64,000 bases of DNA from Promethearchaeota archaeon (GTDB lineage Archaea > Asgardarchaeota > Lokiarchaeia > Sigyniarchaeales > SOKP01), in assembly GCA_030599585.1 (NCBI GenBank), contig JAUVNS010000003.1, positions 96,001 through 160,000 on the forward strand, read 5' to 3'. The translations under genes and the position numbers were made by a program. The notes under the pieces are model-generated. The model had not been told where the DNA came from, did no database searches, and saw only the letters and a program-made list of their open reading frames with translations. Below, in pieces: positions 12,843 to 18,077 of the stretch (within the stretch, counting starts at the first letter, position 1; the number at the start of each line of letters is the position of its first letter).

Positions 12843-13175
12843 ATGCCATATGTGTTTATTCATTCATATTTTCCGGGACATATAGCAGAGGAAATTTCTA
12901 AAGTATATCTTGAGGAGGATAAAAAATTTAAAAAGGCTGTGAGAGGTTTGGCAAAAGAAGTTATCGCTAATGCTGTATTGTCAACACCAGAAGGAATGGA
13001 TATTATAGGAGTTCAAGATGTTAAAGAAGGAAACTTAGAAAAGTATTTGATGCTGCAATATGAATCTATGGTACCATATCAAAGGATTGAAGGTTTTAAA
13101 TACAAGATTGTTGTTCGATTAAAGATTACTGAAGCGTTGGGAATGATTGGCTTGAAAGCACCAGAACCATTATAA
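12843..13175 (+). CDS. Hypothetical protein (small alpha/beta)
   Basis: Strong SD, 110 aa, T-tract downstream. Confidence 0.75.
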   Translation: MPYVFIHSYFPGHIAEEISKVYLEEDKKFKKAVRGLAKEVIANAVLSTPEGMDIIGVQDVKEGNLEKYLMLQYESMVPYQRIEGFKYKIVVRLKITEALGMIGLKAPEPL

Positions 13176-13456: not shown

Positions 13457-15712
13457 TCATTTTATTGGTCGGCTGTTAGCCTGGAATATAGGACCTATAA
13501 ACTGACTATATAGGATCGAAAACGCAGTCTGATTGGACACGACGCTTATCATTTCGCCTTCCTTATCAGTCGCGGGACCGAGTATTACTTCTTCTGCGTC
13601 TCGAGTGAGTGCGAAGAATTCCATAGCGCCGCTCAATTGTCGGAACTGAATGTTTCCCAATCCCATCATTTTGCGTATGATATCCCCGTAAGTTCCCATT
13701 TCGAATCTGGAGGTCAACATGAAGCGCACAGCTTTTTTCTGGTAAGCAAATTCGCTGATAACTTGTAAAATTTCAGGAATAACGTAAGGCATTACGATAA
13801 TTATTGAGGATTTAACTCTATATATAGCGTCTTTAATCGCAGCTACTAACGCATCTCGTCCCACTACCTGCCAAGTTGTAATTTCTTCGATTTCGGGAAT
13901 GGAACTTGCAGCTTTATGAATATCACTTAATGTATTTTCATTTTTTTCTGCAATTTCTGTCGCATCGTCAATTGAGTTCATAAATTGGAGCGTAAAATCC
14001 GCTATTGCGTCTTTAATGTTTTGCGTTGTGTCTCTTGTTGTAGCGGTTAGACTACCTTGAAGTGTTTTTGCATTTTCTTCGTATTTTGATTTATGATCTA
14101 TTAACATTTCACCCAAATTTCGATCCAAGTCAGCTGTCTCATCGCCCCATAGATTTATCTCTTCAGTTATTTTATCGGAAACATTTCTTTTCCCACCGAT
14201 AAATTTATCGTCGAGATCCCTAATCCATTCTTCTTTAATTCTTTTGATATCCGTATCGTACTCATTATAATGTCTTAATGAATCTTCTTTGTGTCTAGTA
14301 ATAGCTTCGTCGTATTGGCGGTTGTGAGTTTTTAGCGAATTCTCTAACGAGTCTTTCAGCTTAGTCGTGGTATCAGAGCAATCTTTTACACCACTTTGTA
14401 AAGTACTGTCGATTTCACCTGACATATCGGTTGCGAGTGTTTCTAATTGCACATTTATTGTTTCTTGCGCCTTATGGTCAAGTTCTGTGGTTTCTGTTAC
14501 GACATTATCGTTCTCTTTCGTCACTACATCAGTTACTTCTGTTTTCAGCAAATCTGTGGTCTCTCTTGTATTTTTAACGTAATCTTCACTAGTTTTTGTA
14601 AAATCAGCTTTCATTGGTTCAGTAAATGTTAAAATGTTCTGAATTGTAGTTTCGTGTCGTGCTTTGTACTTTTTCTTCTTTCCCATCCAGAAAAATCCTT
14701 TCTTGCCCATTTCTGCTGTAAAATCTGTAAACCTATTGGCATGCTCTAGTAGATTATCAATAAGCGTTAGAGTCATACTTTTAAATTCGCTGGTTTGATC
14801 TGTTAATACCCTGTGTCTATCATCAACTGTAGCTTTTAGGTTAGTTTGGAGCGTATCAGTCGTGTTTTTGAGATGGTTCAAATGCTCTTTTAACAAGTTA
14901 GAAATCCTTTCTTTAAGATCCACTACAATTTTATCCATTCGTTCTAAATACTTTTCGAGGATTTGTTCCATTCTTGGTTTAAGATCGTTCGCAATAGTCT
15001 GATGTCTATCTACATGATTATCTAAGTTACTTTTCAATTCTTTTTCTAAATCTTCAATTCTTTTGGAAAAATCAGATAAGAGTTCAGCAATTAAATTAGT
15101 TAAAGTACCTTTTGCTTTATTAACGCTAGATTCATTTTCATTTACTCTGGTATCGCAAATATTTTTGTTATTAGAGTTTAGAGTATCCATAATGGAGTGC
15201 AAATTTTCTTCTAAAGTCTTTGAAGTGTCAGTAAAACGATTTCTCGAGTTATTTATCCTATCTCTTTTATTGTTATTTTTGGTATCCGAGTCTTCAAAAA
15301 ATAGGCTAATTTGATCCTCGACCGCAGTTGCCACTTCGCTGATGCTTTTATCTTGAATCGCTTCTAATTTCTCAAATCGATTTGATTGATCAGCTAATAT
15401 TGAATCTTTAGTCTTCGCAATCTCGTCTCTGAATATTTTTGACTCTCCAATGTAAAGTTCAAAGAAAGGCTCTAATGGAATGTATCTGTCGACAATCCCT
15501 GTTACTTTTTTAAGAAAGTCTTTCTCTACTAACCAATTGGTTATCTCCAGAACAATTTCATATGTTAAATCCGGGTGGTCTTCAGTTAGCGATAAATATA
15601 CTTCAGATGAAGTTGCTCGGGGAACTCTTAGGTATACGATGTACACATTGATTTGTTCTTCAGTGAAACCATATCGAGTGAAAACTTCCTTCGTGAATTC
15701 TTTTAAGCTCAT
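13457..15712 (-). CDS. TrmB-like protein: N-terminal winged HTH, ~500-aa helical/coiled-coil insert, C-terminal TrmB effector/PLD-like domain
   Basis: N-term YGFTEEQINVYIVYL...ATSSEV...LVEKDFLKK...RYIPLEP. C-term WQVVGRDAL...AIYRVKSSIIIVMP...ALTRDAEEVILG. Middle is amphipathic-helix rich. Confidence 0.75.
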   Translation of the reverse strand: MSLKEFTKEVFTRYGFTEEQINVYIVYLRVPRATSSEVYLSLTEDHPDLTYEIVLEITNWLVEKDFLKKVTGIVDRYIPLEPFFELYIGESKIFRDEIAKTKDSILADQSNRFEKLEAIQDKSISEVATAVEDQISLFFEDSDTKNNNKRDRINNSRNRFTDTSKTLEENLHSIMDTLNSNNKNICDTRVNENESSVNKAKGTLTNLIAELLSDFSKRIEDLEKELKSNLDNHVDRHQTIANDLKPRMEQILEKYLERMDKIVVDLKERISNLLKEHLNHLKNTTDTLQTNLKATVDDRHRVLTDQTSEFKSMTLTLIDNLLEHANRFTDFTAEMGKKGFFWMGKKKKYKARHETTIQNILTFTEPMKADFTKTSEDYVKNTRETTDLLKTEVTDVVTKENDNVVTETTELDHKAQETINVQLETLATDMSGEIDSTLQSGVKDCSDTTTKLKDSLENSLKTHNRQYDEAITRHKEDSLRHYNEYDTDIKRIKEEWIRDLDDKFIGGKRNVSDKITEEINLWGDETADLDRNLGEMLIDHKSKYEENAKTLQGSLTATTRDTTQNIKDAIADFTLQFMNSIDDATEIAEKNENTLSDIHKAASSIPEIEEITTWQVVGRDALVAAIKDAIYRVKSSIIIVMPYVIPEILQVISEFAYQKKAVRFMLTSRFEMGTYGDIIRKMMGLGNIQFRQLSGAMEFFALTRDAEEVILGPATDKEGEMISVVSNQTAFSILYSQFIGPIFQANSRPIK

Positions 15713-15877
15713 AAGATTTTCTCTATTTTTAGATTTTAAAAATTCTGATTAAAATATAATTAATTGAATTCCTTTTCTTTATTTCTATAATATTCTAATA
15801 TAAAATATGTATAATAATATTTTCAAAATTATTATATTAAAACTTAAGGATTAAGGAGCGTCATTTTTTGAGACTTT

Positions 15878-16013
15878 AATCTTATTCGTAAAAATAATCG
15901 TACGATAAATTCCTTTTATCAAATCTTATTCTAAAAAACATTCCATATTTGTCAATTCTCAATCTTATTTTCATCATTCAATGGGAGAATGTTATTCCTC
16001 AATCCTTTAAATA
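15878..16013. promoter_or_regulatory. Divergent promoter region with three AATCTTATT direct repeats, a 10-bp palindrome and a TATA-like box
   Basis: AATCTTATT at 15878, 15922 and 15961; ATCGTACGAT at 15897-15906; TTTAAATA at 16006-16013. Confidence 0.45.
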
Positions 16014-16045: not shown

Positions 16046-16744
16046 GTGATAAAAAAAATGAAAAAATTAAGTAAAATTCTCTTAGGCACATTTTTCCTAA
16101 TGATTTTATTTTCGACGATTACTTCGTTCAATGTTGTCGCTGTTGGTAATCCCGACGAAACATTTGAAGTTCCAACTGACACGTACCAAGCACAAATTCA
16201 GGAAGGTGTTGCCACAATGTTTAGATTTAGACAAAGAACACAATTGAGACTTAACGCAAGCGTAAATTTAGATGTAACCTTTGATTGTGATGCGTTAAGG
16301 ATTGGTGATAAAGACTTTGCTGTAGAAATTGAAGGCACTGGAGATCTTCAGATGAATATGACTTGTACGGAAGAACAGGCAGAGTTAGGCTTGTTAAACG
16401 GAAATACTTATCAAATAAGAAATCGTAATCGATACCAATACCAAGAAGGATTTGTCATCTCATTAGAATGCAACGGAACTTTTACACAGGCAAGGTTAAG
16501 CATAAGTGCTACTAGCGAAAATTCAATGGGTCAATGGGCTTATTATGATGAAGCAACAGAAGAATGGGTTAGTGTACCAACAACTGTAGAAAATGGTTAT
16601 TTGACTGCCGAAGTATCTCACTTTTCGACATGGACAGTACTCATACCGGACTACACACTAGCAATTGTTGGGTTTAGTATTGGTGGCGGAGTTGCAGCAT
16701 TAATAATAATCGCTTCAGTGTTCTACATTAAAAAGAGAAAATAA
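16046..16744 (+). CDS. Secreted, C-terminally membrane-anchored beta-rich protein with juxtamembrane HFS motif
   Basis: Signal-peptide-like N-terminus (ATG 16058 is the likely start), N-glycosylation sequons, WAYYD...W...TAEVSHFSTW, then a TM helix and KKRK. Confidence 0.8.
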   Translation: MIKKMKKLSKILLGTFFLMILFSTITSFNVVAVGNPDETFEVPTDTYQAQIQEGVATMFRFRQRTQLRLNASVNLDVTFDCDALRIGDKDFAVEIEGTGDLQMNMTCTEEQAELGLLNGNTYQIRNRNRYQYQEGFVISLECNGTFTQARLSISATSENSMGQWAYYDEATEEWVSVPTTVENGYLTAEVSHFSTWTVLIPDYTLAIVGFSIGGGVAALIIIASVFYIKKRK

Positions 16745-16823
16745 TCGACAAAGTTATTTAATAAATAACCAATTTTTTTTTTATTGTAAAAATATTCTAA
16801 CTATCAATTATTGGATTATCTAT

Positions 16824-18077
16824 ATGCTTACGTTAAAATTAAAGAACAAATCAAAATTATTCAGCATTTTAATTCTTTTATTAATAATCATTAATTTCAA
16901 TATTTTAATTTCTCAAGTTCTATCCAAAAGAACTGAAAATGTTTCAGGATTTTCTACTCAGGATAAGGTCTACCCTAACGAATCTGTGAAATATGTCTTT
17001 TTTAACAACATAATTTTCGATATTTCTACCGATTCTTTTATTGATCTTGACATCCGTTACGATAGTAATATTGAAAATCGTCAAATCTATTTTCTTATCA
17101 ACAATAGCAACCCTATTTTACTTAATATAAGTTCTAAAGTATCAATGCAGAATTTTGGAATGCCTGGAATGCCTCAAGAGCCGAAAAAAGGCGAAACTCA
17201 ATTTCAATATAGATATAACTGCATTCTTCGAATTCAAACTAATACTACAATAGAATCTCTGACAATATATGGCATCAAAAGATCGATATATGGCTTAAAT
17301 CCTAATTCCGAATATTCCTTAGCTTTGTATGAATCCTCACAAGACTCTTGGGAGCTTATTGATACAATCGAGGAACTAAATGAAACGAGTTCAGAATATA
17401 CTTTAGCTGGTTCTGTCTCTGACCTTCAAACAGACACGGACTATTTTATTACTTTTTATGAGGTCGCTAATATCTTCGACAATTGGTTTTTAATGATTAT
17501 TTTAATTGTTGGTGCGATAGGAATTGGTTCAATCGCGATTTTAATTTCAAAAAAAGATTATTTCCAATACTTAAAAACTAGAACCATTCCAATTGAGAAG
17601 GGTGCGCATCGTTTAACCTTAGAAGACGTCTTAGAGAACGAGAATAGGAATAAAATTATTGACTTAATTCTTACAGAACCTGGAATTCATTTTAATGAGT
17701 TATTACGAAAAACTGAAATAGCAGCGGGTAATCTCGTCTGGCACCTCGATATTTTAGAAACTTACAAGGTAGTGGGTAAAAAAAGGATTGGAAATTTCAT
17801 AGCCTATTTTCCCTATTATCAAAAAAATCCTATTTCAAACCTTGATCTTCGATTGAGTAAGAGCAAGTTAACATTAGGCATTCTCGAAATGATCGAGAAA
17901 GAACCAGGTCTTTGGAACAGTGTAATCACAAAACATTTTAAGGTTGACCATAAAACAATTCAATATCATATTAATAAGTTAAAGGATTTAAATCTCATTC
18001 GCTTCAGAAGTGAAGGGAGAAAGAAAAAAATCTTTCCGAATTTAGAATCAGATTATTTTAATAAAAAAGATAAGTAG
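16824..18077 (+). CDS. Single-pass membrane transcription regulator: ectodomain, TM helix, tandem winged HTH
   Basis: Signal peptide, many NxS/T sequons, TM WFLMIILIVGAIGIGSIAILI, then LENENRNKIIDLI...PGIHFNEL...WHLDILE and a second HTH EPGLWNS...TIQYHINKL. Confidence 0.85.
   Translation: MLTLKLKNKSKLFSILILLLIIINFNILISQVLSKRTENVSGFSTQDKVYPNESVKYVFFNNIIFDISTDSFIDLDIRYDSNIENRQIYFLINNSNPILLNISSKVSMQNFGMPGMPQEPKKGETQFQYRYNCILRIQTNTTIESLTIYGIKRSIYGLNPNSEYSLALYESSQDSWELIDTIEELNETSSEYTLAGSVSDLQTDTDYFITFYEVANIFDNWFLMIILIVGAIGIGSIAILISKKDYFQYLKTRTIPIEKGAHRLTLEDVLENENRNKIIDLILTEPGIHFNELLRKTEIAAGNLVWHLDILETYKVVGKKRIGNFIAYFPYYQKNPISNLDLRLSKSKLTLGILEMIEKEPGLWNSVITKHFKVDHKTIQYHINKLKDLNLIRFRSEGRKKKIFPNLESDYFNKKDK

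Follow-up and report, generated by a model that had tools for sequence, protein, structure and literature searches.

Background

The closest described relatives of the protein studied here belong to the TrmB family of archaeal regulators. TrmBL2 of the Thermococcales (5bpd, 5box, 5bpi, 5bqt), of about 264 amino acids (aa), consists of a TrmB winged helix, a coiled-coil helix that forms a short linker, and the first subdomain of the TrmB effector domain. The sugar-sensing TrmB repressors (3qph, 2f5t) also have a short linker, together with a second effector subdomain. Here we analyse a gene in a stretch of 64,000 nucleotides (the window) from the Promethearchaeota archaeon assembly GCA_030599585.1 (contig JAUVNS010000003.1, positions 96,001 to 160,000), which belongs to the Lokiarchaeia. 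The gene is a single open reading frame (ORF) on the minus strand that starts with ATG and encodes an acidic protein of 751 aa (86.5 kDa, pI 5.06; Table 1).

The 751-aa protein resembles TrmBL2 (VIA Z 15.3) in having the TrmB winged helix, the coiled-coil helix and the first effector subdomain, and in lacking the barrel, but it has about 520 extra residues in the form of a fold-back rod with a tip. Both of its end domains are likewise homologous to those of the TrmB repressors, and the first arm of the rod begins where helix α5 of TrmB begins; the linker, however, is a giant hairpin, and the second effector subdomain and the DNA-contacting tyrosine are missing. These comparisons, with the evidence below, show a two-domain TrmBL2-like protein whose linker, a short coiled coil in ordinary TrmB, has grown into a hairpin with an 11-residue (hendecad) repeat.

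In its general shape the protein resembles two further systems. The arms of SMC and Rad50 proteins (5xg2, 7ogt) are also long intramolecular antiparallel coiled coils that bring N- and C-terminal parts together into one head, with a conserved apex and possibly an elbow. The 751-aa protein differs from them in having a hendecad repeat and a cationic-aromatic loop as its apex, and in having no ABC ATPase head, hinge or zinc hook; Pfam and NCBIfam searches revealed no ATPase head of this type and no sequence relationship, and its two termini form a winged helix and a PLD-like domain. The cytoplasmic hairpin of the MCP chemoreceptors is likewise a long helical hairpin with a highly conserved tip, and its insertions reportedly occur symmetrically in both arms (Alexander and Zhulin, 2007). 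In contrast to the MCPs, the 751-aa protein has neither a match to the MCP signal domain nor a transmembrane part, and its periodicity is different and its tip unrelated.

Results and Discussion

A fold-back hairpin with arms of matched length

The AlphaFold2 model of the 751-aa protein (mean predicted local distance difference test score, pLDDT, 74) contains three long helices, at residues 83–241, 244–337 and 346–603. The chain is reversed by one loop (residues 338–345), which falls exactly on the motif G-FFWM-G. The arm 1 helix starts at residue 83, immediately after a conserved PLEPF, and this position aligns with the start of TrmB α5; the amphipathic coiled-coil helix that follows the wing in the TrmB family is thus present, with a length of about 255 residues. 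In the model of a 1050-aa orthologue from Ca. Harpocratesius repetitus the turn (residues 480–495) again lies on the tip motif, and the helix breaks are mirrored between the two arms.

The arm lengths were measured between three anchors, namely PLEPF at the end of the wing, the central glycine of the tip, and TW where the C-terminal domain begins. In the 751-aa protein the distances are 261 aa (PLEPF to glycine) and 269 aa (glycine to TW). The 165 orthologues fall into ten arm-length classes, (261,269), (265,269), (266,268), (301,309), (309,313), (316,320), (327,331), (371,375), (393,397) and (415,419), in which arm 1 ranges from 261 to 415 aa. Arm 1 is therefore lengthened by up to 154 residues, and every time arm 2 is lengthened by an equal number. 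Arm 2 exceeds arm 1 by 4 residues, by 8 where the tip is 4 residues shorter, and by 2 in a single 756-aa protein. The indel sites themselves are mirrored about the tip (178.5 + 507.5 = 686, giving a centre at residue 343).

The lockstep of the arm lengths, the mirrored indels and the two AlphaFold2 models together strongly support an intramolecular antiparallel hairpin of about 2 × 255 residues, roughly 38 nm long. Such a hairpin places both globular domains together at the base and the conserved loop at the apex. An antiparallel rod had been proposed in an earlier note on this DNA, and the same evidence upholds it; the structure prediction of the monomer suggested there as a check put one turn, at the motif, in the 751-aa as well as the 1050-aa protein.

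Structural comparison of the rod gave the best matches with SMC-type coiled coils. For residues 221–459 of the model the match is an antiparallel segment of Smc coiled coil (5xg2, Z 9.9, 231 residues aligned), and for the whole rod it is the cohesin elbow (Z 11.6); matches of the modelled rod at these Z values reflect a shared arrangement only. Two other lines carry no weight in the argument. The mirror correlation of arm conservation peaked at i+j = 682 and was dropped because a parallel-shift control was equally high. A Foldseek match with Rad50 over 672 columns had a root-mean-square deviation (rmsd) of 98 Å, which is no superposition, and was not used. For self-association of the distal rod, complex prediction with two copies of residues 236–450 gave a median of 0.35 (mark, 0.42), which counts neither way.

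The apex of the rod

The tip motif, MGKKGFFWMGKKKKYKARH, is composed of four hydrophobic or aromatic residues between two glycines, surrounded by a collar of Lys, Arg and Tyr. Its net charge is +8 (family mean, +7.8), and it is the only stretch of the protein with a net charge of at least +6 in 15 residues (peak, +7); elsewhere there is one weak +5 window at residue 145. The tip is thus the only strongly cationic patch of the protein. No other 4-mer of the rod is as hydrophobic as FFWM, and the tip is also the densest aromatic cluster of the rod, the sole place with three aromatics in six residues. The arms, on the other hand, have net charges of -9 (residues 91–334) and -24 (residues 354–605), with family means of -12 and -24.

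Among 123 orthologues G339 is conserved in 119, W342 in 120 and G344 in 122. Two versions of the tip are found, KKGFFWMGKKK in the 751-aa and 830-aa classes and KRGSAFKALFxGKHK in the remaining ones. Several distant Asgard relatives have a motif of glycine, basic and hydrophobic residues (R-G-S-A-x-K type) near the midpoint of the linker; in a 1107-aa protein of Atabeyarchaeia, for example, RGSAVKK lies +4 residues from the midpoint. The earlier description of an isolated basic-aromatic motif at the midpoint of an acidic sequence is borne out by the arm lengths of 261 and 269 aa, and when the homologues were compared, as had been advised, the motif proved central, with its glycines and tryptophan near-invariant.

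We propose, with a rough probability of 0.4, that the rod docks end-on, through its apex loop, with a polyanionic surface, which would most probably be the cytoplasmic side of the cell membrane, and that a cytoplasmic partner is bound at the base. The protein would then act as a tether or spacer of fixed length. End-on docking is favoured because the rod is acidic and the apex loop is its only strongly cationic and most hydrophobic element. The protein itself is predicted to be cytoplasmic, as neither a signal peptide nor a transmembrane segment is recognizable; no hydrophobic segment occurs in the 751 residues, the maximum 19-residue Kyte-Doolittle mean in the rod being 0.37. A membrane-inserting paddle at the tip, judged by its composition, is plausible.

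Several points weigh against docking on the membrane. The confidence of the model at the tip is low (pLDDT < 50), and the tips of distant relatives are less hydrophobic. No family member has a transmembrane hairpin in place of the tip, and no relative has a transmembrane segment. An oligomer or a partner protein could just as well bury the exposed FFWM loop, and a tip rich in lysine and aromatic residues could bind nucleic acid. The arm-to-arm contacts, including those of the His2-Cys cluster described below, are deduced from the sequence register. The comparison of gene neighbourhoods gave no functional hint, the neighbours of distant relatives being unrelated. Finally, the helical hydrophobic moment of the tip is 0.10–0.25, compared with a mean of 0.37 for the rod, and given this low value the tip is better described as a hydrophobic loop within a basic collar than as an amphipathic helix. 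A model of the tip as an amphipathic membrane-targeting sequence of the MinD type was rejected on account of the low moment.

The terminal domains

The N-terminal domain is homologous to the TrmB winged helix-turn-helix (wHTH), as judged by profile comparison. With the single sequence no Pfam threshold is reached; TrmB (PF01978) scores 13.5 bits, below the cut-off of 25.6, and the other sub-threshold matches are FilR1_middle (E = 0.018) and Apolipoprotein. A profile of 24 family N-domains, however, matches TrmB 3qph with E = 1e-10 over residues 7–93 and TrmBL2 with E = 7e-7. The Pfam TrmB cut-off is passed by short-linker relatives and by a paralogue in this genome (32.9 and 43.2 bits).

Tyr50 and Asp51 are listed as DNA-binding residues of TrmB, TrmBL1-3, VNG1451C and MalR (PMC4158304). 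In a HMMER alignment Y50/D51 of 3qph and TrmBL2 correspond to L55/E56 of the 751-aa protein, so that this pair of the recognition helix is missing. At position 55, 119 of 123 orthologues have L, I or V, and a tyrosine in the Y50 column is absent from all 24 aligned family members. The recognition helix has a net charge of about -3, as opposed to +2 in TrmB and TrmBL2, and the whole winged helix averages about -4, as opposed to +1. The basic wing residue R76, on the other side of the account, is invariant, as are several basic N-terminal residues. DNA binding by the winged helix therefore appears doubtful. Whereas TrmBL2 keeps Tyr50/Asp51 and a positive recognition helix, the acidic winged helix of the 751-aa protein argues against a TrmBL2-like coating of DNA. 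With the DNA-reading tyrosine of TrmB lost, any contact of the base with DNA is likely to be sequence-independent (through the wing) or to have been replaced by protein binding.

The C-terminal α/β domain corresponds to the first effector subdomain of TrmB, an eight-stranded sheet flanked by helices. Residues 612–751 of the AlphaFold2 model superimpose on residues 110–242 of 2f5t with VIA Z 17.9 (rmsd 1.9 Å, 131 residues). Positions 7–121 of PF11495 (Regulator_TrmB) are matched by 13 of 36 family C-domains (best E, 3e-6), and the top Foldseek match is TrmBL2 (E = 7e-8). The fold is PLD-like, with Nuc, Zucchini and FAM83 matched at Z 12–15. Inspection of the sequence shows that residues 606–751 contain no histidine, and hence no HKD site of the PLD pattern HxK(x)4D. 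The invariant residues are K634, N687, R704, D705, E707, E708 and S726. The protein ends at residue 751, which aligns with residue 242 of TrmB, and nothing follows; the second effector subdomain, a β-barrel, and the sugar-binding residues G320 and E326 are absent. Because the chain stops where the sugar-binding barrel of TrmB would start, the domain content is that of TrmBL2.

Both domain assignments of the earlier note, an N-terminal winged helix-turn-helix and a TrmB-effector-like C-terminal domain, thus agree with the profile match to 3qph and the superposition on 2f5t. Its idea of a tether from DNA to membrane fares unevenly, the antiparallel rod being sustained while the DNA end is weakened by the replacement of Tyr50/Asp51 with Leu55/Glu56 and by the acidity of the winged helix.

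The same data bear on the possibility that the protein is a bridge or scaffold that does not involve the membrane at all. The tip would then bind nucleic acid, or would pair tip-to-tip on the principle of the Rad50 hook and the SMC hinge, and the protein would link nucleoid sites with one another, or the nucleoid with ribosomes or RNA. A fold-back rod with a conserved apex is the architecture of SMC and Rad50, Smc and cohesin coiled coils are the best matches of the rod, the tip is the sole polycationic element in an acidic protein, and the closest solved relative, TrmBL2, is a chromatin protein. However, there is no ATPase head or other enzymatic domain, the winged helix is acidic and without Tyr50, and four hydrophobic residues in a row between glycines are unusual for a loop that binds nucleic acid. 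We regard such a bridge as unlikely.

Repeat, candidate elbow and His-Cys cluster of the rod

The hydrophobicity of both arms has one sharp period of 3.65 residues, corresponding to an 11/3 hendecad and not to 3.5, and when the sequence is written in rows of 11 the hydrophobic residues form straight stripes for more than 240 residues. The only prolines in the arms are P246 and P366. An alignment of 24 sequences with 71–91% identity contains no indel, and the block entropies of the rod (0.87–1.85 bits) are close to those of the globular domains (0.76–1.48 bits); the rod is thus under strong constraint.

The long helices with an 11-residue period also give rise to look-alikes. The rod matches the tail positions of ZorA models weakly (E = 1e-7 to 3e-8, rod only); membership of the ZorA family of Zorya defence was rejected, since the MotA/ExbB-like membrane domain is absent and the scores are far below the curated cut-offs. 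Apolipoprotein A1/A4/E (PF01442) is matched with E = 4e-8 and ApoA-I chains with E = 1e-3, and these are look-alikes of the same kind. If the matches were taken at face value, together with the periodicity, the protein could be an apolipoprotein- or perilipin-like coat, whose amphipathic helices of 11-mers would part and spread flat over lipid. This is very improbable. The score of 33.7 bits is far below the Pfam cut-off of 90 bits, for which membership was rejected; the exact lockstep of the arms and the mirrored indels require pairing of the arms; the helices are without the proline punctuation of apolipoproteins; and the net charge of -33 of the arms disfavours lying on anionic lipid.

The rod consists of two parts, a proximal stalk that varies in matched length steps and a constant distal module that contains a kink and the His2-Cys cluster. 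The distal 100 residues or so of each arm are constant because all length changes occur between the base and residues ~179 and ~507. The proximal edge of the distal module is marked by the only helix break in arm 1, the invariant L244-K245-P246, a candidate elbow; the 1050-aa orthologue has the corresponding break at residues 386–390.

The pair His233-x3-His237 of arm 1 and Cys445 of arm 2 occupy core positions of the hendecad. The segment that contains the cysteine, G441-V-K-D-C445-S446, conforms to the invariant pattern G441-x-K-D-C445-S and is mirror-opposite to the histidine pair and the elbow. Only one of 123 orthologues lacks Cys445, and the full triad occurs in 213 of 217 proteins of the orthologous clade, at any length, as well as in a few distant relatives. 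From the register of the two arms, His233/His237 and Cys445 make up a candidate inter-arm metal or redox site at the elbow. Other invariant histidines of the rod are H277, H463, H474 and H540, which are placed roughly opposite acidic residues (H540, for example, opposite D143). The placement of histidines and cysteine suggests that the rod may be sensitive to metal, redox state or pH.

Such sensitivity would have a ready use in a genuine transcription regulator with a sensory stalk, in which the wing or the altered helix would bind DNA and the bundle would relay a metal, redox, pH or temperature signal to the base in the manner of a chemoreceptor. The TrmB descent of both end domains, the invariance of R76 and several N-terminal basic residues, the mirrored core triad with the further invariant histidines, and the possession by the gene of its own conserved promoter element are all consistent with this. 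We nevertheless consider it distinctly unlikely, because Tyr50/Asp51 are missing and the recognition helix has a net charge of about -3, because a stalk of 38 nm is far beyond the needs of sensing, and because the conserved tip is left without explanation.

The elbow and the length classes would find a place in a more specific form of the proposed end-on docking, a ruler-like tether that would hold the nucleoid or another cytoplasmic body about 38 nm from the membrane, farther in lineages with longer arms, with His233/His237 and Cys445 acting as a switch at the elbow. We consider this elaboration improbable as it stands. If true, it would be a prokaryotic counterpart of the tethering of chromatin to the envelope, in the closest archaeal relatives of eukaryotes.

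A structural role of the rods themselves was also weighed, in which they would pack laterally or end-to-end into filaments or a sub-membrane layer, as in a cytoskeletal or lattice protein. Every face of the rod is conserved, beyond the hydrophobic seam, the rod lengths are discrete, and the protein is the product of a core gene with its own promoter. On the other hand, no repeat or assembly motif was identified, and rods as strongly acidic as these would be expected to repel one another unless counter-ions or partners intervene. A lattice of this kind seems improbable, and end-on docking of the apex by a fixed-length spacer is the reading that we prefer.

Relatives and distribution

An exhaustive search yielded 176 relatives, whose common plan is a single N-domain joined to a single C-domain by a helical linker that varies greatly in length (323 to 1788 aa in total for the proteins). 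The named relatives come from Promethearchaeota, Jordarchaeales, Atabeyarchaeia and Sigynarchaeota. Of 68 sampled genomes of the same taxonomic family, 62 contain a full-length match, usually a single one; across the phylum the figure is 150 of 301 genomes, with lower similarity. A search of the order with the 1050-aa orthologue gave a match in 112 of 121 genomes. The gene is therefore a core gene of Lokiarchaeia, where it is nearly universal, with relatives across the Asgard archaea. A 'TrmB family transcriptional regulator' of Prometheoarchaeum syntrophicum, DSAG12_03376, which is a possible orthologue of the 751-aa protein, is among the ten best-detected proteins (PMC11284389).

Five further C-domain genes are present in this genome, two with a TrmB winged helix, one short, and two TPR fusions (Table 1). 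The 669-aa and 743-aa paralogues have helical linkers of 260–300 aa and C-terminal extensions of about 150–185 aa. Weaker R-x-G-hydrophobic motifs, FRIGALKS and LRLGVIQ, occur near the midpoints of paralogue linkers. Stand-alone C-domains (140–230 aa) and fusions of TPR repeats with the C-domain are also found in Asgard genomes, and for this reason the C-domain looks like an autonomous module, perhaps one for binding or oligomerisation.

Gene and genomic setting

The ORF is a real gene. More than 120 sequence clusters (71–98% identity) are exactly 751 residues long, all from Lokiarchaeia/Promethearchaeota assemblies. The GC content is about 32% throughout the window. A purine-rich motif resembling a Shine-Dalgarno sequence directly precedes the ATG and reads GGAG in most orthologues; a TATA-like promoter element lies farther upstream (Table 1). 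Scans around the gene revealed no tRNA, Rfam family or terminator.

Table 1. Coordinates of the gene, its features and the paralogues. Plain numbers are window positions; entries beginning with G000 give contig and position in the same genome.
Feature	Coordinates	Strand	Basis or remark
Whole gene, 751 aa	13457..15712	-	Length of exactly 751 aa kept in orthologues at 69-98% identity
TrmB-type winged helix, aa 1-82	15467..15712	-	Profile matches; wHTH regulators at VIA-align Z 10-12
Arm 1, aa 83-337, continuing TrmB coiled-coil helix α5	14702..15466	-	AlphaFold2, hydrophobic periodicity
Arm 1 indel site, aa 178/179 (insertions of longer orthologues)	15176..15181	-	
His233-x3-His237, hendecad core positions of arm 1	15002..15016	-	
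L244-K245-P246, candidate elbow	14975..14983	-	
Tip motif, aa 335-353; loop K338-G-F-F-W-M-G-K345 with Lys/Arg/Tyr collar	14654..14710	-	
Arm 2, aa 346-603	13904..14677	-	AlphaFold2; length follows arm 1 exactly across orthologues
G441-V-K-D-C445-S446 in arm 2	14375..14392	-	
Arm 2 indel sites, aa 507/508, 512/513, 522/523	14144..14194	-	
C-terminal α/β domain, aa 606-751, first (PLD-like) subdomain of TrmB effector domain	13460..13897	-	
AT-rich TATA-like promoter element, 100-136 nt upstream of ATG	15812..15848	-	Aligned upstream regions of 11 orthologues
669-aa paralogue, TrmB winged helix + linker + C-domain	G000:C8:7721-9730	+	
743-aa paralogue, TrmB winged helix + linker + C-domain, with N-terminal CxxC segment	G000:C26:52926-55157	+	
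293-aa paralogue, coiled coil + C-domain	G000:C52:38013-38894	-	
TPR repeats fused to TrmB-effector-like C-domain, two proteins	G000:C38:8322-9992; G000:C30:22724-24223	-, -	

A convergent Fae-Hps gene adjoins the 751-aa gene up to the order level, and a divergent two-gene unit (16046-18077) does so in closer genera only. A second conserved element, consisting of AAAGGATTGAGGAAT, a short spacer and TCCCA, is found at 15991-16008 on the minus strand (within ~15970-16010), 40–75 bp upstream of the divergent gene at 16046. Genomes that keep the divergent unit beside the 751-aa gene share this element, which is probably part of the promoter of the neighbouring divergent gene.

The gap between the Fae-Hps gene and the 751-aa gene, 850 bp long here, contains a 110-aa ORF at 12843-13175 on the plus strand. 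Pfam gave no match to this ORF and tblastn no counterpart in 16 orthologous loci, and it is probably not a gene, because the length of the gap differs widely among loci (144 to 1243 bp).

In two distant Asgard lineages a small tRNA_bind gene (PF01588) adjoins the homologue (L035:5629-5955 and L039:9327-9659). The two PF01588 genes of this genome are on other contigs (C9 and C20), and the adjacency is probably a coincidence or relict synteny.

Conclusions

Full-text literature searches yielded no description of this protein. Its domains belong to a known family; what is new for the TrmB family is the architecture, a fold-back rod of the SMC kind that comes in length classes and has a conserved apex. 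Because the arm-length classes are discrete and both arms change in step, rod length is evidently under selection. The protein thus represents a new route to an SMC-like fold-back rod, starting from a small transcription-factor scaffold.

Lokiarchaeia are cultured and imaged relatives of the eukaryotic ancestor, and to our knowledge little is known of how their cytoplasm, nucleoid and membrane are organised. An 86-kDa protein that is nearly universal and very strongly conserved among them has a shape that its sequence reveals with unusual certainty. Handles for experiments are provided by its tip loop, elbow and His2-Cys cluster, and by orthologues in closed genomes, for example that of Ca. 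Harpocratesius repetitus.

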